Positions 792 through 13,172 of a stretch of 32,000 bases of DNA are shown here, piece by piece. Location of the stretch: positions 120,001-152,000 of the forward strand of contig NZ_CP045921.1 in assembly GCF_025273655.1 (NCBI RefSeq), written 5' to 3'. The position numbers and the translations under genes are program-made. This DNA is from Candidatus Saccharimonadota bacterium (GTDB lineage: Bacteria > Patescibacteriota > Saccharimonadia > Saccharimonadales > Saccharimonadaceae). Position 1 is the stretch's first letter; each line of letters opens with the position of its first letter. Under the pieces are notes generated by a model. That model made no database searches. It worked only from the letters and a program-made list of their open reading frames with translations, and had not been told where the DNA came from.

Positions 792-820
792 TTGACAACA
801 GGCCTACGACAGGCGATAAT
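792..820 (+). promoter_or_regulatory. sigma70-type promoter of the surface-protein locus (TTGACA-17-GATAAT)
   Basis: TTGACA 792-797, 17-nt spacer, GATAAT 815-820. It predicts a CA-rich leader of about 34 nt before ATG 861. Confidence 0.5.
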
Positions 821-860
821 CGGGCTACAAACCACCACAAACACAAACAAGGCACCACAT

Positions 861-1466
861 ATGAACACACGAACTCCGCGTACTACGCATCTCGCCGCCA
901 CGGCATTGATTGTCGTTGGCGTTATCTGTTCGCCGGTCATTGCATCGGCTGCATCAACCACAGCAAACACGGTCGTAAATGCGTCTGTTGGGGCATCGAT
1001 AGGTATCACGTCGAGCTCGACTGTCGCGCTTTCGCTTACTCCTACGTCGAGTGGCGTGGTGAGTAGTGCGAGCGACACTGTGACAGTAAATACCAACAAC
1101 GCAAGTGGCTATACGTTGACACTCGCAGATGGTGATGCTAATGTTAATCTGACGAGTGGCGGTAACACCATAGGAGCTCACTCGGGTACCCAAGCAAGTC
1201 CGTCTACGCTCAGCACCAACAAATGGGGATATGCTGTAGCGGGAGTCGGTGGATTCGACGCATCGTATTCTGCAGAAGCAAACAGTACGACCAGCAGTTC
1301 GAAATGGGCAGGTATACCCGCTAGCGGTGCACCAATACAGCTCAAAACTACCGCTACTACCGCTACAAATGATACCACTACTGTCTGGTACGGTGTAAAA
1401 GCCACATCTGCTCAGCCAAACGGCACGTACAGTGATACCGTCACCTATACGGCAACAACAAACTAA
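861..1466 (+). CDS. Secreted beta-rich surface subunit, paralog 1 (WxL-like / SCPU-like, family assignment tentative)
   Basis: The track ORF starts at TTG 792, but that TTG is the -35 hexamer. ATG 861 gives 201 aa, matching the paralog lengths. Signal peptide ends ASA/AS. T/S/A/N/G-rich with no Cys. GYTL and VTYTA occupy the positions where WxL proteins carry GWxL and TWTL. Confidence 0.8.
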   Translation: MNTRTPRTTHLAATALIVVGVICSPVIASAASTTANTVVNASVGASIGITSSSTVALSLTPTSSGVVSSASDTVTVNTNNASGYTLTLADGDANVNLTSGGNTIGAHSGTQASPSTLSTNKWGYAVAGVGGFDASYSAEANSTTSSSKWAGIPASGAPIQLKTTATTATNDTTTVWYGVKATSAQPNGTYSDTVTYTATTN

Positions 1467-1487
1467 CATATCCAGGAAAACAGAGGT

Positions 1488-2105
1488 ATGAAAAGAAACA
1501 CCAAAATCACTAGCTTTGTCACAGTAGCCTCATTGGCGGCTGTTGTTGCGTCGCCTATTGTCGCATCGGCCGCATCGACTACGGCAAACACAACCATCAA
1601 TGCATCGGTAGGCAGTGTCATTAGTATGACAACTGGTACCACAGTAGCGCTGAGCCTGACACCTACCGGAAGCGGTGTTGTGACGAGTGCAAGCGACACA
1701 GTAACCGTCAACACCAATAACACAACTGGCTACAACCTGACAGTTGCAGACAGTGACGCGACGACGACCCTCGCGAGTGGCGGCAACACCTTCACCGCAC
1801 ATAGCGGTACTAAGACCGCACCGACTGCTCTCGCCAACAACACATGGGGCTTTGCAGTTGCGACTGGTACGACAGGTATCGGTACCAATGGTTTTGATGC
1901 CTCGTATTCGGCAGAAAGCAACGCTACGTCAAGTGCCACAAAATGGGCAGGTATGCCGGCTACCGGTTCTCCGATGTTGTTGAAGTCTACTACAACAGCA
2001 GCGACAAATGATACCACGACCGTGTGGTATGCGGCCAAGGCTACAACAGCCCAGCCAAATGGCACGTACACCGACACCGTGACATATACCGCGACGACGA
2101 ATTAG
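1488..2105 (+). CDS. Secreted beta-rich surface subunit, paralog 2
   Basis: 205 aa. SD AGAGG before the ATG. Signal peptide ...VASAAS. Collinear with paralogs 1 and 3. Confidence 0.85.
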   Translation: MKRNTKITSFVTVASLAAVVASPIVASAASTTANTTINASVGSVISMTTGTTVALSLTPTGSGVVTSASDTVTVNTNNTTGYNLTVADSDATTTLASGGNTFTAHSGTKTAPTALANNTWGFAVATGTTGIGTNGFDASYSAESNATSSATKWAGMPATGSPMLLKSTTTAATNDTTTVWYAAKATTAQPNGTYTDTVTYTATTN

Positions 2106-2146
2106 TATACATGCCCCGAGGAGGGGCAGGGACAGGAGAGTGACAG

Positions 2147-2749
2147 GTGAGCAAGCGAGTAGTCAGACTACTAGGGGTCAGCATACTATCGGGGTTACTG
2201 GTAGCGGCTGCTCCTATTGTCGCCTCCGCTGCGAGCCAGACTGCTTCGACGACCGTCAATGCGACGGTCGGTTCGGTTATTAGTATGAGTACGAGTACGA
2301 CGGTCGCCATCAGCCTCACGCCAACATCTGGTGGTGTCGTGAGTAGTGCGAGCGACACCGTGTCGGTGAGTACCAACAACGCGCTTGGCTACAATCTAAC
2401 ACTTGCCGACTCTGATGCAACGACGAACTTGGTCAACGGCGGTAACACGATCGGAGCTCACACCGGTACGCAAGCGAGTCCATCGGCGCTGGCATCTAAC
2501 ACGTGGGGTTACCGGGTTGTAAATGTCGGCGGATTTGGCGCTAGTGCTTACACGGCGGAGACTAACAACGGCTCTAGTACGTCGACATGGGCTGGAGTGC
2601 CGGCCACTGGCTCCGCAAACACACTCAAGTCGACTTCATCTACTGCATCGGGAGATACCACAACGGTGTGGTACGGCGTGAAAGTCAATAGTACCAAGGC
2701 AAATGGTACCTATACCGACACTGTAACCTACACAGCCACCACCAACTAG
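2147..2749 (+). CDS. Secreted beta-rich surface subunit, paralog 3
   Basis: 200 aa. GTG start preceded by CAGGAGAG. Signal peptide ...VASAAS. Collinear with paralogs 1 and 2. Confidence 0.85.
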   Translation: MSKRVVRLLGVSILSGLLVAAAPIVASAASQTASTTVNATVGSVISMSTSTTVAISLTPTSGGVVSSASDTVSVSTNNALGYNLTLADSDATTNLVNGGNTIGAHTGTQASPSALASNTWGYRVVNVGGFGASAYTAETNNGSSTSTWAGVPATGSANTLKSTSSTASGDTTTVWYGVKVNSTKANGTYTDTVTYTATTN

Positions 2750-2768
2750 CAATATCAGGAGAATACGA

Positions 2769-3683
2769 GTGAAGCGAATTTTTATCAGTAGTGTTGTAGC
2801 GATAATACTTGCACTGGCGAGTGTTTCCCAGGTAGCATTTGCAGCAGATGCCCAGCAAGTCGCTCCTGCGACTCCAGATGAGAGCATCACACTCTCGCCG
2901 GTGAGTACTCGTTTTGCGATTGATGCCGGTCAGCAGCGAGCTGGTGAGATGACAATCGTCAATGATGGCAAATCCGACTATGACTTTATCGTCTACGCGC
3001 GGCCGTATTGGGTGGCTAACGACTCATATGATCCGGTGTTTACAAAAGGCTCCAAGCAAAGTGATGCATACCAGTGGGTACGCTTGCCGCAGACGAAGTT
3101 CCACGCCAAATCCGGTGAGACGGTCAAAGTACCCTATACTATCGATGTGCCGGCTACTGCTGCGCCCGGCGGTCATTACGGTGTTATATTTGCCGAGACT
3201 CAGCCCTCCAACACTGGCGAGCAGGGCAATTCTGTGGAGCGCAAAAAACGTGTTGGCATGATCATTTATGCCTCGGTCAACGGGCAAACGATCAACAAGG
3301 GTGAGATTGTCGGTAATCAAGTACAGTTTTGGCAGACACAACCGCCAATGAAGGCGACGGCTACTGCGCGCAATGAAGGTAATGTCGACTTTGTAGACAA
3401 AGTGACATTTGCCGTCAAAGACATGTTTGGCAATCCAAAGTATGTTATCACTAAAGAATACCCAGTACTGCCCCAAACGACACGTAGTATCGGGCTTGAA
3501 TGGCCACAGTCGCCATGGTTTGGCCTGTTTAAAGTAGAGATTCAGCAGCAATTCCTCGACAAAGAACTAACATCGACGCATTATGTACTGATGATGCCGC
3601 GTCTTCTACCGGTCTTGCTGATAGCGCTCCTTGTGATAGGAGGTGGTGTTGCGCTCCTTCACCGCAAAAAACGCAAGGCGTAG
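2769..3683 (+). CDS. Signal-peptide protein with beta-sandwich ectodomain and C-terminal TM anchor (DUF916/DUF3324-like WxL-interacting-protein architecture)
   Basis: 304 aa. Signal peptide ...SQVAFA. Segments ITLSPV..F.I.AGQ...G.MTIVNDG and GGHYGVIFAE. C-terminal hydrophobic helix LLPVLLIALLVIGGGVALL followed by HRKKRKA. GTG start after CAGGAGA. Confidence 0.7.
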   Translation: MKRIFISSVVAIILALASVSQVAFAADAQQVAPATPDESITLSPVSTRFAIDAGQQRAGEMTIVNDGKSDYDFIVYARPYWVANDSYDPVFTKGSKQSDAYQWVRLPQTKFHAKSGETVKVPYTIDVPATAAPGGHYGVIFAETQPSNTGEQGNSVERKKRVGMIIYASVNGQTINKGEIVGNQVQFWQTQPPMKATATARNEGNVDFVDKVTFAVKDMFGNPKYVITKEYPVLPQTTRSIGLEWPQSPWFGLFKVEIQQQFLDKELTSTHYVLMMPRLLPVLLIALLVIGGGVALLHRKKRKA

Positions 3684-4485
3684 CTTCGCGTATCTCACGC
3701 TACTGGCGGTCATTCTGACGAGTCAGGCGGCGCCAGCATGGGCGCAGTCGAGTAGCGTCTATGCGACACTTTGTGGCACCACGTCACATATCACGATCGC
3801 TCAGCCTGCAAGCGACAGTACGGTTACGGCTGCTCAGGTGACCGTCAGTGGTACGGTGGCACAGGCAAATCAGATCGAAGTGTATATCGACGATGAGTTT
3901 GATAGCACGATACCACTAACTGTTGGACAAACGACTTATAGCGGTAGCGTGCAACTACCAAATGGCACGCATACACTTCGCGTGGAAGCGATTAATAGCT
4001 GTAGTGGTCAAAACGGCGAGGCGACGAGTGTCGTGACATATACGATACCTCCGGCTCAGGCGTCTTCTGGTACTGCGGCGGCGACTGGGGTAGCTCCGGC
4101 TCAAGGCGGTGCGGTGACTATCGGCCCAGCTCCAACTGTATCGCAGGGTGTTGGGGGGGCTCCCCGGCAGGAGGCGGCGATGCCGCTCGGATTGCCACCA
4201 CTTCTGGGGCGCCCACTCGAACAGGCGCTCGATTGGCTCAATATCGCACCCCACGATCAACAAAGCGGCGCAACAGGCTTATCACTTGGACGCGCGATGT
4301 TCGTGGTATTGGGTATGTATTTCCTCGTATTGGGCGCGGCGCCTACATTGGTGCACACCCTGGCTGGACTCGGGGTGGTCACTCGAGTGACACCGCAGTC
4401 CAACAGTGCACGTCGCCAGTATCTCGTGCGATGGGGTGTGCGGGTTGCTGGGCTGCTAGTTTTGTTACTCGCACTGTTTCTGTAG
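3643..4485 (+). CDS. Signal-peptide protein with Ig-like domain, Ala/Pro/Gly linker and C-terminal TM helices
   Basis: 280 aa. Signal peptide ...APAWA/QSS. Ig-like segment ITIAQPASDSTVTAAQVTVSGTV...GTHTLRVEAIN. Two C-terminal hydrophobic helices. The start overlaps the previous gene by 41 nt. AGGAGG at 3638-3643 suggests the real start may be TTG 3649. Confidence 0.7.
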   Translation: MVLRSFTAKNARRSFAYLTLLAVILTSQAAPAWAQSSSVYATLCGTTSHITIAQPASDSTVTAAQVTVSGTVAQANQIEVYIDDEFDSTIPLTVGQTTYSGSVQLPNGTHTLRVEAINSCSGQNGEATSVVTYTIPPAQASSGTAAATGVAPAQGGAVTIGPAPTVSQGVGGAPRQEAAMPLGLPPLLGRPLEQALDWLNIAPHDQQSGATGLSLGRAMFVVLGMYFLVLGAAPTLVHTLAGLGVVTRVTPQSNSARRQYLVRWGVRVAGLLVLLLALFL

Positions 4486-4503: not shown

Positions 4504-5370
4504 ATGCCAGAACTTCCTGAAGTAGAAACCGTGCGACGTGGACTCGACGGGCTGATTGTGGGTCGCGTTGTCCGTAGCGTTAGTGTGCGTGATTCGCCCA
4601 AAAGTTTTCCGAACGCCCAGGCTGATGTTGACCAGTTTTTCATCGGTGCAGAAATTATCGCTGTGCGCCGTCGCGCCAAAGTATTACTTGTCGATCTCAG
4701 TACCGACTATACTCTCGTGATTCACCTCAAGATGACTGGGCAGCTGGTGTATCGTGGTGAGCAGGTGTTTGGTGCTGGCCACCCAAACGATTCGCTGATT
4801 GGCGAGCTTCCGGACAACTCGACACGTGTTATGATCGAGTTTATGGACAATTCGTGGCTCCATTTTAACGATCAGCGCAAATTTGGCTGGATACGACTTA
4901 TGCCAACTATTGAGGTTCCCAATATTGATTTTATGCAGCGTGTTGGCCCCGAACCCCTTGAGGCAGATTTTACGCCAGAGGAGTTTGCGGCACGATTCAT
5001 ACGTCGTGCCCGCACTAACATCAAGGCAGCATTGCTAGACCAAACTGTCGTAGCGGGCGTGGGTAATATCTATGCCGATGAGTCGCTCTGGGGTGCACGG
5101 ATCAGCCCTAAACGCCTAGTGGCAGAGGTGACACCCGGCGAATTTACCACCCTCTACACAGAACTACGCAGCGTCATGAATCTTGCCATAGAAAAGGGCG
5201 GGAGTACAGATAAAAATTATGTGAACGCCGAGGGAAAACGTGGGAGCTATATGGATTTTGCGCGGGTGTTTCGCCGTGAAGGCGAGGCGTGCCCACGGTG
5301 CGGCGCGACGATAGAAAAGATCAAGTGGGCGGGTAGAGGTACACATCTGTGTCCGAATTGTCAGAAGTAG
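4504..5370 (+). CDS. mutM: Formamidopyrimidine-DNA glycosylase (Fpg/MutM)
   Basis: 288 aa. N-terminal MPELPEVE catalytic signature. C-terminal zinc finger CPRCG...CPNCQK. Confidence 0.95.
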   Translation: MPELPEVETVRRGLDGLIVGRVVRSVSVRDSPKSFPNAQADVDQFFIGAEIIAVRRRAKVLLVDLSTDYTLVIHLKMTGQLVYRGEQVFGAGHPNDSLIGELPDNSTRVMIEFMDNSWLHFNDQRKFGWIRLMPTIEVPNIDFMQRVGPEPLEADFTPEEFAARFIRRARTNIKAALLDQTVVAGVGNIYADESLWGARISPKRLVAEVTPGEFTTLYTELRSVMNLAIEKGGSTDKNYVNAEGKRGSYMDFARVFRREGEACPRCGATIEKIKWAGRGTHLCPNCQK

Positions 5371-6629: not shown

Positions 6630-7826
6630 CTATTGCCAGACGCGCACGTAATCGACATACATGGCCGTGCCGCTTGGAACGGTGTAGCCTTTTTTGAGGG
6701 CGAGGTTGAAAATGATGTACTGTGAGATACTCGTGATATTGGCGGCGTTGGTGTAGCTTGGGCCGGGCTGGCCATCTAGGTACACCTGGATCTTATTAGC
6801 CGTCCACAACATGCCGTAGGTGTGGAAATCTTGGGTATAATCGGTGCCGCTATTACCGTAAACTGTGAGGCCAGACTGCTGGTGATTAGACGAGGTACCG
6901 TAGTGGTAGTTGAAGCTTGGGCGTGTCTGACTACTCAAGCCAAACTCAAAGATGTCGATCTCTGGTGGCCAGGTCGAATCAACTGGGGCGGGGAGCGTCC
7001 AAAAGGCGGGCCAGACGCCAGTGTTGCCAGGGACTTTGATACGCGCTTCGATGTAGCCGTATTTGTAGCTCCAGCTGCGACCGTTTTGTACCATACCGGA
7101 GCTGTAGGGGTAGCCGTTGGTGGCGCCTTGGTTGAGCGTAAGTACGAGGCTGCCGTTTTGCACCTTTGGATTATTCGCGACATAGTACGCGTCTTCGATT
7201 GAGGCATTGTACGGGTCTCCGTAGCTATAGCTCGGGCCTCGCTGAGTAGCCCACTGCGACGCGAGACTGCTGCCGTCGAACTCGTCGCGCATGATTAGAC
7301 TCCAGCTACCGCCGATGCCTACGGGAAGTGGTAGGCAGTTGGGATAGATACCGCTGTAGCCACTCGCACAGGCGGGGGTTACCGGTGTGTCGGGTGAGGG
7401 TGTACTTGGTGCCACGCCGCCGTTACTGGAGTTACCCGAAGAGGCCGCGGGGGATTTCAACGAGGTGCCTGTTATGACTGATGAGCCTGCTGTGCCGCCA
7501 GGAGCACTGGAGGCAGGGGATGTGTTGTCGGTTGAACCGCTCGCTGTAGCCGAGGTACCAGTCGTAGTCGTGGGACCGGTGCTGCTGCTGATGCTCTGGG
7601 GCGAGGTGGGCGTGTCTGCTGGTATGGTGCCTGTCGAGCCATCATGTACTTCTCTCTCGGTAGCCGCTTCGAAATGCGCCCGAGCTATCAGTGCTCCGCT
7701 GATAATCGTGCTGCTCATCCCGAGTGTGAGTAATACGAGGACGGCGCGCTGATGCGCTCGTACAAACAAGATGCCCGTGTGGCGGATCGTAGCTATCTGG
7801 GGGCTATTGGGGTGAAAAAGGTGCAT
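6630..7826 (-). CDS. Membrane-anchored glycoside hydrolase family 16 (beta-glucanase/laminarinase-like)
   Basis: 398 aa. N-terminal TM helix AVLVLLTLGMSSTIISGALIA and a Ser/Thr/Pro-rich linker. GH16 signatures GYIEARIKVPGNTGVWPAFWTLP and catalytic EIDIFE. Confidence 0.85.
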   Translation of the reverse strand: MHLFHPNSPQIATIRHTGILFVRAHQRAVLVLLTLGMSSTIISGALIARAHFEAATEREVHDGSTGTIPADTPTSPQSISSSTGPTTTTGTSATASGSTDNTSPASSAPGGTAGSSVITGTSLKSPAASSGNSSNGGVAPSTPSPDTPVTPACASGYSGIYPNCLPLPVGIGGSWSLIMRDEFDGSSLASQWATQRGPSYSYGDPYNASIEDAYYVANNPKVQNGSLVLTLNQGATNGYPYSSGMVQNGRSWSYKYGYIEARIKVPGNTGVWPAFWTLPAPVDSTWPPEIDIFEFGLSSQTRPSFNYHYGTSSNHQQSGLTVYGNSGTDYTQDFHTYGMLWTANKIQVYLDGQPGPSYTNAANITSISQYIIFNLALKKGYTVPSGTAMYVDYVRVWQ

Positions 7827-8435: not shown

Positions 8436-8465
8436 TTGACGAGTAGACAAAGCTTATGGTACAGT
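8436..8465 (+). promoter_or_regulatory. Candidate promoter TTGACG-18-TACAGT for the DHH-like gene
   Basis: TTGACG 8436-8441 and TACAGT 8460-8465. The predicted TSS lies downstream of ATG 8456, which favours ATG 8510 as the start. Confidence 0.4.
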
Positions 8466-8509
8466 GGTACCAAAATCTAGATAAAACACAAAAATTCAAG
8501 GAACAACAG

Positions 8510-10498
8510 ATGAACGACACAGGCGCAAAGCAGCAAATCGTCGATACGATCCAGGGTGCGGATACGATATTAGTTACCGTGAGCGCAGATCCATCGGTCG
8601 ACGAGTTATCAGCGGCGCTTGGCCTCACAATGTATCTCAACGATATGGGTAAGCATGCTACGGCAGTGATGAGTGGTGCGCTGCCGCCCGCTATCACTTT
8701 CCTAGAGCCAGAGAAGACATTTGAGCCGACTGTCGATAGTCTACGCGATTTCGTGATTGCACTCGATAAGGAAAAGGCTGACCACTTGCGCTATAAGGTT
8801 GAGGGCGACGTGGTGAAGATTTTTATCACCCCCTACAAGACAGTGATTACCGACAAAGACTTGCAGTTCACCCAAGGAGATTACAATGTCGAGATGGTGA
8901 TTGCACTCGGCGTGACGGATCAGGATCACCTCGACAAGGCACTGGCTGCGCATGGCAAAATCTTCCATGATGCTTCGGTAGCAACTGTGGGTCTGAGCCA
9001 GAGTACACTTGGTACAATCGACTGGACTGACGAGTCTGCTAGTAGTGTGTCAGAGCTCACAACGAGTCTCATCGATGGACTCAAAAGTGAAGAGCACCCG
9101 GTATCGTCGCAAGTAGCGAGCTCACTTCTGACCGGTATCGTAGCGGCGACTGATCGTTTCAGCAACGATAATACATCGGCGCGCACGATGTCACTGGCTG
9201 GTGAACTGATGGCATCAGGTGCCAACCAGCAACTTATCGCATCGAAACTGCGTGAAGGTGCCAAACTACCGCTTCAAGATGACGGTAGGACCAAAAAAAT
9301 CGACAAGTCTACCCCAGAGAAAAGTAAGCCCTCCGACGAGCAGCCAAAGCGTCGTGATGGTGGTCTGAGTATCGCGCACGACGCCGAGCAGGAAGACGCG
9401 CCAGAGACACCAAAACCACGAGCCAAATCTGCTCCCAAGAAACCGATGATTGAACCACTCACTGCACAGCCGAGTGATAATCCAACTGAGGTGCTTGATC
9501 ATGCGCTCAAAAAGGCTGAAGCAGATCGCAGCGCGGCAGCCGAGCAGCAGACAGACGATCTCATCGCGTCGGTCACCGAGGAAGCAAATGCGGCCAAATC
9601 AGTAGAGGACGTCCTGTCTGAGCAGCTTGCAGCTGTGGCACCTCCTGCTGCACCAATTGCCGACGAGCTTCAACAGGCAGCTCCAGATGAGCCGAAGCTC
9701 AGCCCAGCCAAATCGCTTGTAGACACGCCAGATACAGAGGAGCCATCGTTTGGGGGTACACTGAATGCTACCGCCGAAGCCGCCGCCGAAGACAAACGAA
9801 ACGCTGATTTGAATCGCAACAAGACGATTTTGTCACACGAAAGCGGGCAATATGTCGGCGATACTCAGCCAACGTTTGAATCACCGCTCAATGCTGCGGG
9901 TCAGACAGGTGAGCAGCCATCGATAGATCCATTTGCGCCAGTGACCACCGCGCCAGCTGCCCCTATCGCACCGTTGAACCCGTTGCCACCGCTTGAGCCT
10001 ATTGCGCCAGCAACCCCTACGGGTACGCTTGCAGATATTGATCAACAAAACCGTGCCACCGAGGCGATCGTACCGGATGCATCTTCTGCTGATGCCGCGC
10101 AGAGCGCGCTCGACGCTGTTATCCAGGCAGCGCCCGACCCTCAACCATTCAACCCGCTCGATGTCATAGAGACGGCGGCGCCAGCGCCAGCTCCTCAGCT
10201 CGACAATACACCTACGGAGGGTGCACCCATGACACCGCCACCACCGCCGATGCCAGATTTTGCGCAGCTTCCACCTCTCCCGCCACCGGTCTTCCCGGCG
10301 AGTAGCGGTGTAGATATACCAGAGACACCAAGCGCGCCTGCTTTGCCGCCATTGGAGCCACAAGCGCCAGAGCTACCGCAAGCACCACTACCTCCGGAGC
10401 AACTCGGCAGTGTGCTGCCCGAGGCACCAAGTTTGCCGCCCGCACAAGACGCAGGCCCAACCGATCCTAAACAGTTTAGAATCCCCGGCCAGCAGTAG
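8510..10498 (+). CDS. DHH-family (NrnA-like) domain protein with degenerate catalytic motifs and ~400-aa Pro/Ala/Glu-rich disordered tail
   Basis: 662 aa from ATG 8510 (SD AAGGAA; alternative ATG 8456). WTDESASSVSE and GIVAATDRF segments resemble NrnA-type DHH domains. The DHH position reads FHD. No DHHA1/GGGH region is present. Confidence 0.75.
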   Translation: MNDTGAKQQIVDTIQGADTILVTVSADPSVDELSAALGLTMYLNDMGKHATAVMSGALPPAITFLEPEKTFEPTVDSLRDFVIALDKEKADHLRYKVEGDVVKIFITPYKTVITDKDLQFTQGDYNVEMVIALGVTDQDHLDKALAAHGKIFHDASVATVGLSQSTLGTIDWTDESASSVSELTTSLIDGLKSEEHPVSSQVASSLLTGIVAATDRFSNDNTSARTMSLAGELMASGANQQLIASKLREGAKLPLQDDGRTKKIDKSTPEKSKPSDEQPKRRDGGLSIAHDAEQEDAPETPKPRAKSAPKKPMIEPLTAQPSDNPTEVLDHALKKAEADRSAAAEQQTDDLIASVTEEANAAKSVEDVLSEQLAAVAPPAAPIADELQQAAPDEPKLSPAKSLVDTPDTEEPSFGGTLNATAEAAAEDKRNADLNRNKTILSHESGQYVGDTQPTFESPLNAAGQTGEQPSIDPFAPVTTAPAAPIAPLNPLPPLEPIAPATPTGTLADIDQQNRATEAIVPDASSADAAQSALDAVIQAAPDPQPFNPLDVIETAAPAPAPQLDNTPTEGAPMTPPPPPMPDFAQLPPLPPPVFPASSGVDIPETPSAPALPPLEPQAPELPQAPLPPEQLGSVLPEAPSLPPAQDAGPTDPKQFRIPGQQ

Positions 10499-12395: not shown

Positions 12396-13172
12396 ATGAA
12401 GAGCAGGGGTGGATTCACGATTGTTGAGCTGCTTATCGTCGTAGTGGTGATGGGTATTCTCGCATCTATCACGATTGTCGCGTATAACGGGATCCAAGAC
12501 CGGGCTAAAAAAGCTTCCATATCTTTTGCTCTCGTGCAGTATAGTAAAAAAATTGTGACGTATCGCGCCCCGAATGGCACCGAAGAGTATCCACCCAACA
12601 AAGAAGCCGCGGGCGTGCAAGATGCAAACGGTATACAGTATCAGTACATCTCTACTTCTGCAAGCGACTACTGCTTGATGGCAACGAGCGGCTCATTGAA
12701 TTATATTATTTCAAGCACAAACCCGACAGTTCAGGCAGGAACATGTACGGGGTATAATATGCTCGTTTGGGATGAATCATCAAGTAGCGTTCCCATAACA
12801 AGCGGTGTGGCGGATACAAGTACCTATCGTAGTGCCCCAGCTTCAGTACGTATTGCGCCAAACATGACAGGTCGCATGTTGAGTGGTAGCCCCTATAGTG
12901 GCGACGTGGGTCAGACATATACTGTATCGTTATGGGTTAAAAGTGACACAAGCTGGAACGGCACGAATGACAATTCAAAGATACGTTTCGGTAATGGCTC
13001 AAGTGGTACGTTGTTGCAGGCTTGTGGGTATGGGGGCGTGAAGGCCGACTGGACTCAAGTTACATGTAGCTATACGCTTACAACGGGCAATACAAGTGTT
13101 GGTATTAGTGTTGGCAACAGCGGCACCATCGGCAACATCTGGATAGATGATATCTCTGTGTCTCGTACGTAA
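12396..13172 (+). CDS. Type IV pilin-like protein with C-terminal CBM4/9-like (jelly-roll lectin) domain
   Basis: 258 aa. Class III signal peptide MKSRGG/FTIVELLIVVVVMGILASI (Gly-1, Phe+1, Glu+5). The C-terminal half has GQTYTVSLWVKSD...DWTQV...NIWIDDISV, typical of CBM_4_9-type modules. Confidence 0.85.
   Translation: MKSRGGFTIVELLIVVVVMGILASITIVAYNGIQDRAKKASISFALVQYSKKIVTYRAPNGTEEYPPNKEAAGVQDANGIQYQYISTSASDYCLMATSGSLNYIISSTNPTVQAGTCTGYNMLVWDESSSSVPITSGVADTSTYRSAPASVRIAPNMTGRMLSGSPYSGDVGQTYTVSLWVKSDTSWNGTNDNSKIRFGNGSSGTLLQACGYGGVKADWTQVTCSYTLTTGNTSVGISVGNSGTIGNIWIDDISVSRT

Follow-up and report, generated by a model that had tools for sequence, protein, structure and literature searches.

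A conserved five-gene locus of Candidatus Mycosynbacter amalyticus that looks like a compact Pam pilus relative equipped with a WxLIP-type chaperone

Candidatus Mycosynbacter amalyticus is a cultured parasite of the Saccharimonadota with a genome of 1.08 Mb and Gordonia amarae as host. In a window of 32,000 nucleotides of its chromosome (the whole stretch analysed here, contig NZ_CP045921.1, positions 120,001 to 152,000 of the forward strand) we describe a locus of five genes, g1 to g5, at positions 792-4485. It encodes three small paralogous subunits (g1-g3), a membrane-anchored two-domain chaperone-like protein (g4) and an immunoglobulin (Ig)-like protein with two C-terminal transmembrane helices (g5). 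This feature is real and conserved, and its gene organisation, folds, homology links and synteny were established computationally. It is undescribed for M. amalyticus and looks like a compact relative of the Pam pili that has single-domain subunits and a chaperone of the WxLIP type. We consider it probable that the locus represents a compact, usher-less surface assembly working by β-strand complementation, a variant that links Pam pili with the WxL/WxLIP clusters.

Pam pili were introduced by Troman et al., who solved two filaments of M. amalyticus, PamA and PamB (bioRxiv 10.64898/2026.03.03.709456). The pathway proposed in this preprint relies on donor-strand exchange without an usher and includes the chaperones PamC and PamD, which are similar to PapD and FimC and possess a C-terminal transmembrane helix. 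It is completed by PamR, a membrane-anchored protein with RbmA-like tandem FnIII domains, an N-terminal strand and a C-terminal transmembrane segment. The filaments are mixed polymers of PamA and PamB, the pam operon (QHN43268-43274) adjoins the ATP synthase genes, and PamA/PamB were reported in 88-344 genomes (10.64898/2026.03.03.709456). In Supplementary Table 1 of the same work QHN42421.1 (119 kDa) is labelled pamC, whereas the text presents PamC as the PapD-like chaperone of the pam operon; QHN43268.1 (36.5 kDa, rank 38) fits this description better, which suggests a labelling slip in the preprint.

WxL clusters, on the other hand, are defined by at least one WxLIP and at least two WxL-domain proteins (PF13731, in which the Trp-x-Leu motif occurs twice). 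In Pfam a WxLIP is recognised by PF06030 (DUF916/WxLIP_PGBD) and PF11797 (DUF3324/WxLIP_HBD) at the gathering score, and non-covalent binding to peptidoglycan is reported for the WxL proteins. According to Hassan, Chaudhuri & Williamson (2023) a WxLIP consists of a signal peptide, two tandem Ig-like domains and a transmembrane helix at the C-terminus, and AlphaFold2 (AF2) predicts that a hairpin strand of WxLIP occupies an open place of the WxL sandwich (PMC10599100). In our opinion this is, apart from the name, strand complementation of the chaperone type.

The Pam preprint mentions neither WxL, DUF916 or SCPU nor the accessions of the present locus, and the literature on WxL/DUF916 in Saccharibacteria yielded no earlier description of it. 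A preliminary description of this DNA, made from the sequence alone, had stated that no such locus was described outside Firmicutes; the Pam work has made this statement outdated. The locus lies ~900 genes away from the pam operon (QHN4237x versus QHN43268-43274) and the window contains no ATP synthase genes.

Organisation and conservation of the locus

The window was assigned to M. amalyticus strain JR1 by a match in the protein collection, in which g3 and g4 are identical to GII36_00675 and GII36_00680. Other genes of the window (MutM, HolA, S20, a type IV pilin, PNPase, RNase J and FtsK) agree with this origin. The five open reading frames (ORFs) are tightly packed on the + strand: g1 (861-1466, 201 amino acids), g2 (1488-2105, 205 amino acids), g3 (2147-2749, 200 amino acids; QHN42373.1, WP_260763664.1), g4 (2769-3683, 304 amino acids; QHN42374.1, WP_260763666.1) and g5 (3643-4485, 280 amino acids). 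Each product begins with a hydrophobic segment followed by a cleavage site of the AxA type and, judged by these signals, all five are exported proteins. The gaps between g1 and g2, g2 and g3, and g3 and g4 measure 21, 41 and 19 nucleotides, g4 and g5 overlap by 41 nucleotides, and ribosome-binding sites of the GGAG type precede g2 to g5.

A sigma-70-like promoter is predicted upstream of g1 (792-820, + strand; TTGACA-17-GATAAT, 11 of 12 consensus positions). Since the promoter scan found 3 sites in total versus 3.2 in shuffled sequences, the evidence for this promoter lies in the quality and the position of the 792-820 site. The TTG at 792 that opens the long g1 ORF belongs to the -35 hexamer and therefore the ATG at 861 is the likely start of g1. 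No terminator was detected 3' of g5; mutM starts 18 nucleotides past g5 and may be co-transcribed with the locus. Between a gene for a HAD hydrolase (115-708) and mutM (4504-5370) there is no sixth gene and hence no usher, and none was found in the syntenic loci either. The promoter and the five packed genes with signal peptides had been noted correctly in the preliminary description.

A synteny scan across the species representatives of GTDB yielded 77 loci. The order of subunit genes (one to three copies), chaperone gene and g5 recurs in ~45 independent species-level genomes of Saccharimonadia, which means that the locus is more than a chance arrangement. The genes of these loci often overlap, and the closest relative likewise possesses three subunit copies. 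This survey of gene neighbourhoods, which had been suggested together with the preliminary description, thus bears out the co-occurrence of subunits, chaperone and g5. Chance ORFs as well as a Gram-negative chaperone-usher operon acquired recently by horizontal transfer were also considered as origins and rejected, as conserved synteny, the lack of an usher and the family's breadth across the candidate phyla radiation (CPR) speak against both.

Gene 4, a divergent member of the WxLIP lineage

The AF2 model of g4, based on 56 homologues, has a predicted local distance difference test score (pLDDT) of 89.4 and comprises the signal peptide, two β-sandwiches and a C-terminal helix (residues 279-303). 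Its best Foldseek matches in the PDB are the Enterococcus faecium WxLIP structures 9i1y and 9i25_C, the latter bound to a long WxL protein (E 8e-14). RbmA follows (E 1e-9) and then a series of chaperones from chaperone-usher systems, namely CfaA, CsuC, PapD, FimC and EcpB (E 2e-8 to 1.5e-6).

At the level of sequence, neither g4 nor any other of the five proteins matched Pfam DUF916 (PF06030) or DUF3324 (PF11797) at E<=10. Within the 56 members of the g4 family PF06030 is matched weakly by 19 (best E 0.0011) and PF11797 by none. Two distant homologues from the synteny scan, L050 and L051 (E 5e-43 and 7e-33 with the g4-family hidden Markov model, HMM), pass PF06030 with 29.6 and 33.3 bits at a cutoff of 27.3 bits, and because only these distant proteins do so, the homology between g4 and WxLIP_PGBD is transitive. 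Searches of the PDB with the profiles of L051, a true DUF916 protein by Pfam, and of its neighbouring subunit retrieved nothing relevant. The automatic UniRef name of g4 is "DUF916 domain-containing". With a WxLIP as best structural match, weak matches among the relatives and two homologues above the gathering score, g4 belongs to the WxLIP/DUF916 lineage as a divergent representative, and the architecture which the preliminary description had recognised in it is upheld.

The most conserved part of g4 is a hairpin formed by residues 133-171 (3165-3281, + strand), in which PGGHYGVIFAE is followed by a loop and by RKKRVGMIIYASVNG. In general form the hairpin reads PGGHYGVIFAE, loop, RKKRVGxIxYAxVNG with P133-G138, F141, K160, R161 and G163 being invariant. 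In the AF2 model this region appears as a loop of lower confidence between two long strands. It is a candidate strand-donating element that would be analogous to the hairpin of WxLIP (PMC10599100) and, among PapD-like chaperones, to the F1-G1 hairpin. The motif MTIVNDG is also found in g4.

A C-terminal transmembrane helix with basic tail (LLPVLLIALLVIGGGVALL-HRKKRKA; 3603-3680, + strand) is indicated by a hydropathy segment at residues 270-300 and by the AF2 helix mentioned above. Directly ahead of helix and tail the C-terminus (3591-3683) carries a near-invariant Y-V-L-x-x-P-R. Very weak matches of the helix-plus-tail region of the family to models of C-terminal sorting signals (PID-CTERM, LPXTG-like, PEP-CTERM) hint that this tail may be a processed sorting signal instead of a plain anchor.

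The small subunits

The three subunits are paralogues with pairwise identities of 63-66% (g1 versus g2 66%) and identical C-termini (DTVTYTATTN). Serine and threonine make up 34-36% of their residues, only 12-14 residues of each are charged, and the sole cysteine sits in the signal peptide of g1. The earlier picture of ~200-residue paralogues that are poor in charged residues was therefore accurate. Each mature protein (~172 amino acids, ~17 kDa) is composed of a short, conserved N-terminal extension and a single β-rich domain of ~155 residues.

In g3 the cleavage site (A26, A28) is followed by a strongly conserved extension of 14-19 residues. It corresponds to residues 29-47 of the protein, ASQTASTTVNATVGSVISM (2231-2287, + strand), and the same segment is present in g1 and g2. 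Hydrophobic residues alternate along this extension (I/V37, A39, V41, I45, I/M47), and T35 and I45 are invariant across 56 sequences. Such a pattern is as expected of a donor strand, and we regard the segment as a candidate for this role.

The HMM of the pilin family matches g1 with E 5e-91. Among the curated models the family as a whole has one recurrent relation, namely CPR_Pam_pilin_C (NF058581). All three subunits match it (g1 E 6.6e-4, g2 1.2e-4, g3 1e-4) with 19.8-22.4 bits over profile positions 5-146 of 148, which is below the cutoff. The same model is matched by 54 of 56 subunit relatives, again sub-threshold in every case (best E 3.3e-7); apart from it, one single weak match was found in one member. 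Pfam SCPU (PF05229, cutoff 22.4 bits) is approached by g1 (16.4 bits, E 0.012) and g3 (9.9 bits) with the C-terminal 40 residues only, and weakly by 16 of the 56 relatives (best E 0.0027).

The AF2 model of g3 is confident (pLDDT 90). Its top 25 Foldseek matches are almost all pilins of chaperone-usher systems (the pilin domain of FimH, Caf1, FimA/F/G, CsuA/B), and the PamA/PamB structures are absent from its top 50. Comparison of structures, recommended along with the preliminary description, thus gave a strong result for g4 with WxLIP and only weak chaperone-usher pilin matches for g3. In a similar way, of the Pfam profiles recommended there, SCPU gave weak matches below its cutoff, whereas WxL, DUF916 and DUF3324 gave none on the five proteins.

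The proposal that the subunits are Trp-to-Tyr variants of WxL proteins found no support. Pfam WxL (PF13731) is matched neither by g1-g3 at E<=10 nor by the 56 relatives at E<=1, and it is also unmatched by those subunits that adjoin true DUF916 genes in CPR and Actinomycetota loci. A W-x-L motif is absent from g1-g3, in which tryptophan occurs as WGY/WGF, WAG and WYG/WYA. A search of the PDB with the subunit-family profile found nothing relevant, although entry 9i25 contains a long WxL protein. The only WxL label is the automatic UniRef name of g3 ("WxL domain-containing protein"), which was not reproduced by the Pfam search. By their sequences, g1-g3 cannot be recognised as WxL domains. The putative counterparts of the WxL motifs on which the proposal had been built, GY(N/T)L and VTYTA, do exist and are nearly invariant in the subunit family.

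Subunits are the most conserved component of the locus, with 60-86% identity across species compared with 45-81% for g4 and 20-49% for g5. This high conservation points to a structural rather than a host-specific role.

Gene 5, an Ig-like membrane protein

The signal peptide of g5 is followed by an Ig-like domain (residues 50-125) that is recognised as Pfam Glucodextran_B with 27.6 bits at a cutoff of 27 bits. A pair of cysteines (Cys44/Cys119) is conserved in the family. After the domain comes a variable linker rich in proline, glycine and alanine and then two transmembrane segments (~211-246 and 260-280) with an arginine-rich loop between them, so that the earlier assignment as an Ig-like protein with C-terminal transmembrane helices proved to be right. 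PamR (NF058578, cutoff 300 bits) is matched weakly by g5 (15 bits, E 0.0086) and by 11 of 39 members of its family (best E 1.4e-5), and it is the sole family that recurs among the matches. By sequence, g5 weakly resembles PamR, the proposed terminator or anchor of Pam, and it is a candidate base or terminator here. In ~40 genomes its gene comes after that of the chaperone.

Extent of the family and long members

In many of the syntenic loci the module is followed 3' by a gene for a protein of 237 or 440-490 amino acids and by a second chaperone-like gene. The C-terminal ~140 residues of these downstream proteins match the subunit HMM and end in G-x-Y-x-(D/N)-T-V-T-Y-T-A-T, a motif common to the subunits. 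Their N-terminal part shows weak matches to NF058579 (PamT) and to TafC of the haloarchaeal strand-donation fimbriae. Positions of the PamT-like or 440-490-residue gene together with the second chaperone, 3' of the g5 homologue, are for example 7689-9268 in L003 and 7528-9872 in L017, and the same arrangement is seen in L019, L035, L037 and L039. In M. amalyticus mutM occupies the position of the PamT-like gene and therefore the subunit-chaperone module and the PamT-like module seem to be separated in this genome. Upstream of the subunit genes of L005, L008-L011, L015 and L048 there is an extra divergent chaperone-like gene on the + strand (E 1e-21 to 1e-37) beside a subunit gene, likewise divergent, on the other strand (E 1e-12 to 1e-18), i.e., a second, convergent copy of the pair.

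Distant homologues of the chaperone, with 22-29% identity, were found in Gracilibacteria, in CPR of the Parcubacteria type and in metagenome-assembled genomes (MAGs) of Actinomycetota. In the latter (L052, L054, L056, L057, L060 and L070) the homologues are longer (388-469 amino acids) and have several C-terminal transmembrane segments. Proteins of 180 and 559 amino acids next to the L070 homologue carry a related C-terminal strand with Y-x-(S/T), THTYTVVSQ and YSTSSVFILIEQP, located after LNWED/INWED. The chaperone homologues and related strands of these MAGs demonstrate that the family reaches beyond CPR and Firmicutes.

An exhaustive profile search assigned 2088 clusters at 50% identity to the subunit domain. 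Long proteins (260-1773 amino acids) account for 29 of the top 150 representatives, and in all but one of them (28/29) the domain is located at the extreme C-terminus, as in FimH-type adhesins, large WxL proteins and the Pam pilins with N- and C-terminal domain. Among the passengers that precede it are a polysaccharide lyase, a propeller of the PD40 type, a core resembling transglutaminase, and RCC1 propellers combined with Fn3 and TIG domains. In the long members of the RCC1 type the match begins at profile position ~45, without the N-terminal extension, which suggests that this class is acceptor-only like tip adhesins. Members of the enzyme class have retained a linker that resembles the extension.

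Comparison with known systems

With the Pam system (NF058578, NF058579, NF058581) the locus shares the organism, the Sec-exported subunits with a putative C-terminal domain of the truncated Ig type (by the sub-threshold matches to NF058581), a two-domain FimC/PapD-like chaperone with C-terminal transmembrane helix, an Ig/FnIII-like membrane-anchored protein that weakly resembles PamR, and the lack of an usher. In this comparison g4 is set beside PamC and PamD by their published descriptions. Moreover, in other genomes the module adjoins PamT-like genes. It differs in the architecture of the subunits, as g1-g3 have one domain and no cysteine pairs, whereas PamA, PamB and PamE are built from a nine-strand N-terminal β-sandwich, a linker donor strand and a C-terminal domain. 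A single chaperone stands against the two of Pam, g5 combines a single Ig-like domain with two transmembrane helices, and the NCBIfam scores of the locus proteins are far below the cutoffs. Finally, Pam filaments were observed, whereas the present locus is known from genes and models.

Lactobacillales and Bacillales have WxL/WxLIP (Csc) clusters (PMC10599100, PMC9772566) in which WxLIP shares the architecture of g4 and is also its best structural match, and distant g4 homologues pass Pfam DUF916. Common features are furthermore several small subunits beside one WxLIP-like gene, a subunit domain that also serves as C-terminal module of large multidomain proteins, and a chaperone-like strand predicted to complete the sandwich of the partner. 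In contrast, the subunits described here are devoid of W-x-L motifs and of a Pfam WxL match, g4 does not match DUF3324, a transmembrane-anchored Ig-like protein takes the place of the LPXTG partner, and the phylum is Saccharimonadota.

Similarities to chaperone-usher pili, both archaic (Csu/CupE, SCPU) and classical, are all structural or sub-threshold. They include the order of several pilin genes followed by a chaperone gene, the C-terminal strand motif G-x-Y-x-D-T-V-T-Y-T that corresponds to the C-terminus of SCPU in weak Pfam matches, the nearest solved folds of the subunits (Caf1, Fim and Csu pilins) and the matches of g4 to CfaA, CsuC, PapD and FimC. Here, however, there is neither usher nor outer membrane, and the chaperone is membrane-anchored and not soluble.

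With its WxLIP-like chaperone and with subunits reminiscent of the domain that ends the Pam pilins the locus sits between the Pam and the WxL/WxLIP systems. The usher-less chaperone-pilin organisation, offered in the preliminary description as the alternative to a WxL cluster, has gained ground by the structural matches of g4, the weak SCPU matches and the Pam system of the same organism. In the end both readings describe a single mechanism from different sides.

Proposed assembly and competing explanations

Strand donation, polymerisation, anchoring and a role in host contact are suggested by fold, conservation and analogy. All five products would be exported by Sec, with g4 remaining tethered to the cytoplasmic membrane via its C-terminal helix. 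Each newly exported subunit would be captured by g4, which may insert a strand of its conserved hairpin into the incomplete β-sandwich in the manner of WxLIP, PamC/PamD and PapD-type chaperones. Subsequently, the 14-19-residue N-terminal extension of the next subunit would displace the g4 strand by donor-strand exchange. The product would be a thin fibre of single-domain, Ser/Thr-rich subunits of ~17 kDa that are probably glycosylated. With its Ig-like domain and transmembrane hairpin, g5 could act as membrane-anchored base or terminator, as was proposed for PamR. Large proteins encoded elsewhere that end in a subunit domain (lyase, transglutaminase-like, propeller) might be displayed on the fibres or at their tip, and the likely role of the assembly would be contact with, or adhesion to, the envelope of the Gordonia host.

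Several observations weigh against such an assembly. In cryo-electron microscopy of filaments from M. amalyticus, PamA and PamB were the only classes resolved, which speaks especially against an abundant third filament, and QHN42371-42375 are absent from the published list of the 40 most abundant proteins, the proteomics supplement covering these top 40 and the Pam proteins (10.64898/2026.03.03.709456). The g4-family profile revealed no similarity to solved WxLIPs or chaperone-usher chaperones in the PDB, and NCBIfam returned no PamC/PamD-type or other relevant model for this family. All sequence matches to Pam, SCPU and PamR fall short of the curated NCBIfam and Pfam cutoffs. The Foldseek scores of g3 are weak (E 0.02-1, best 0.024; TM-score 0.3-0.5), and for adhesins the subunits are unusually conserved.

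The main rival is a non-polymeric display of the WxL type. Here g1-g3 would stay bound 1:1 to the WxLIP-like g4 or pass to peptidoglycan, and they would decorate the surface or bind the host wall without a fibre, while g5 would be a small anchored partner of the Csc/LPXTG kind. This scenario is rather unlikely in our estimation, but much of the above is in harmony with it: the best structural match of g4 is WxLIP including its complex with long WxL, at least one WxLIP-like protein plus at least two small subunits fit the published composition of WxL clusters (PMC10599100), small and large forms with the C-terminal domain have their parallel in small and large WxL proteins, both UniRef names belong to this context, and no third filament class was seen by cryo-electron microscopy. 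It is the subunits that argue against it. Neither g1-g3 nor their 56 relatives nor the subunits next to true DUF916 genes match Pfam WxL, the W-x-L motif is missing and the subunit profile misses the WxL chain in the PDB. Instead, they consistently match CPR_Pam_pilin_C, and the conserved N-terminal extension would be left without a stated role.

Another explanation treats the locus as accessory to Pam, with g1-g3 as minor or adaptor subunits in PamA/PamB filaments, g4 as third Pam chaperone and g5 as alternative PamR. By their sub-threshold matches the subunits would share a domain with the C-terminal part of Pam pilins, a PamT-like gene and a second chaperone directly follow the module in many other Saccharimonadia, and Pam filaments are already known as PamA/PamB mixtures. 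This solution is nevertheless improbable: in M. amalyticus the locus is ~900 genes off the pam operon and has its own promoter, chaperone and anchor, the models of the Pam paper required none of g1-g5, and with 2088 clusters at 50% identity the subunit family far exceeds the 88-344 PamA/PamB genomes, counted in different databases. Still less credence is given to a donor-strand fibre that is independent of a chaperone, like TasA, archaeal threads, bundling pili or Tat-fimbriae, with g4 and g5 as mere membrane anchors or wall-spanning scaffolds. In its favour, the large neighbouring homologues weakly match TafC of the haloarchaeal Tat-fimbriae, which assemble by strand donation (PMC12337348), and monoderm fibres of this kind are reported to require no chaperone. 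However, g4 invariably adjoins the subunit genes and is often translationally coupled to them, it has the two-domain fold of chaperones and WxLIPs, and its most conserved element is the hairpin and not the anchor. A chaperone-assisted fibre built by strand complementation is the explanation that we prefer.

Other genes of the window

Three genes downstream of the locus, on the - strand, a secreted glycoside hydrolase of the GH16 family with a long N-terminal region rich in serine, threonine and proline is encoded (6630-7826); it is possibly a host-wall-degrading enzyme. The + strand gene at 8456-10498 specifies an acidic protein of 680 amino acids (71.7 kDa, isoelectric point 4.35) whose long C-terminal half is rich in proline and alanine. 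Its size and its place in the gene order suggest that it is QHN42381.1, which ranks 29th by abundance in the published M. amalyticus proteome ("hypothetical protein, 71.6 kDa"). A type IV pilin-like protein with the N-terminus GFTIVELLIVVVVMGILA and a C-terminal domain of 230 amino acids (12396-13172, + strand) is a further surface-filament gene, unrelated to the locus.

Significance

Only few CPR parasites are in culture. M. amalyticus is among them, and its contact with the host has been ascribed to filaments. Another system of strand complementation that is conserved widely would be a further candidate apparatus for host attachment. In the WxLIP papers the transmembrane helix was read as inserting into host membranes, whereas by analogy with Pam and chaperone-usher systems the protein would be an assembly chaperone tethered to the membrane. 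Should the C-terminal domain serve generally for mounting, large surface proteins of CPR, namely lyases, transglutaminase-like proteins and RCC1 propellers, are predicted to be displayed on such fibres.

More tentatively, and with doubt prevailing, the locus might stand for a third, hitherto unseen Saccharibacteria filament, a thin single-domain fibre formed by donor-strand exchange on a WxLIP-type chaperone. It could then be the bridge that unites the WxL/WxLIP proteins of Firmicutes, the Pam pili of CPR and the Gram-negative chaperone-usher pili in one strand-complemented superfamily spanning monoderm CPR, Actinomycetota and Firmicutes, with the C-terminal domain as general mounting module for enzymes and propeller adhesins. 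The locus connects two literatures, on Pam and on WxL/DUF916, that do not cite each other, and its main value lies in the link among the WxL/WxLIP, Pam and chaperone-usher systems.

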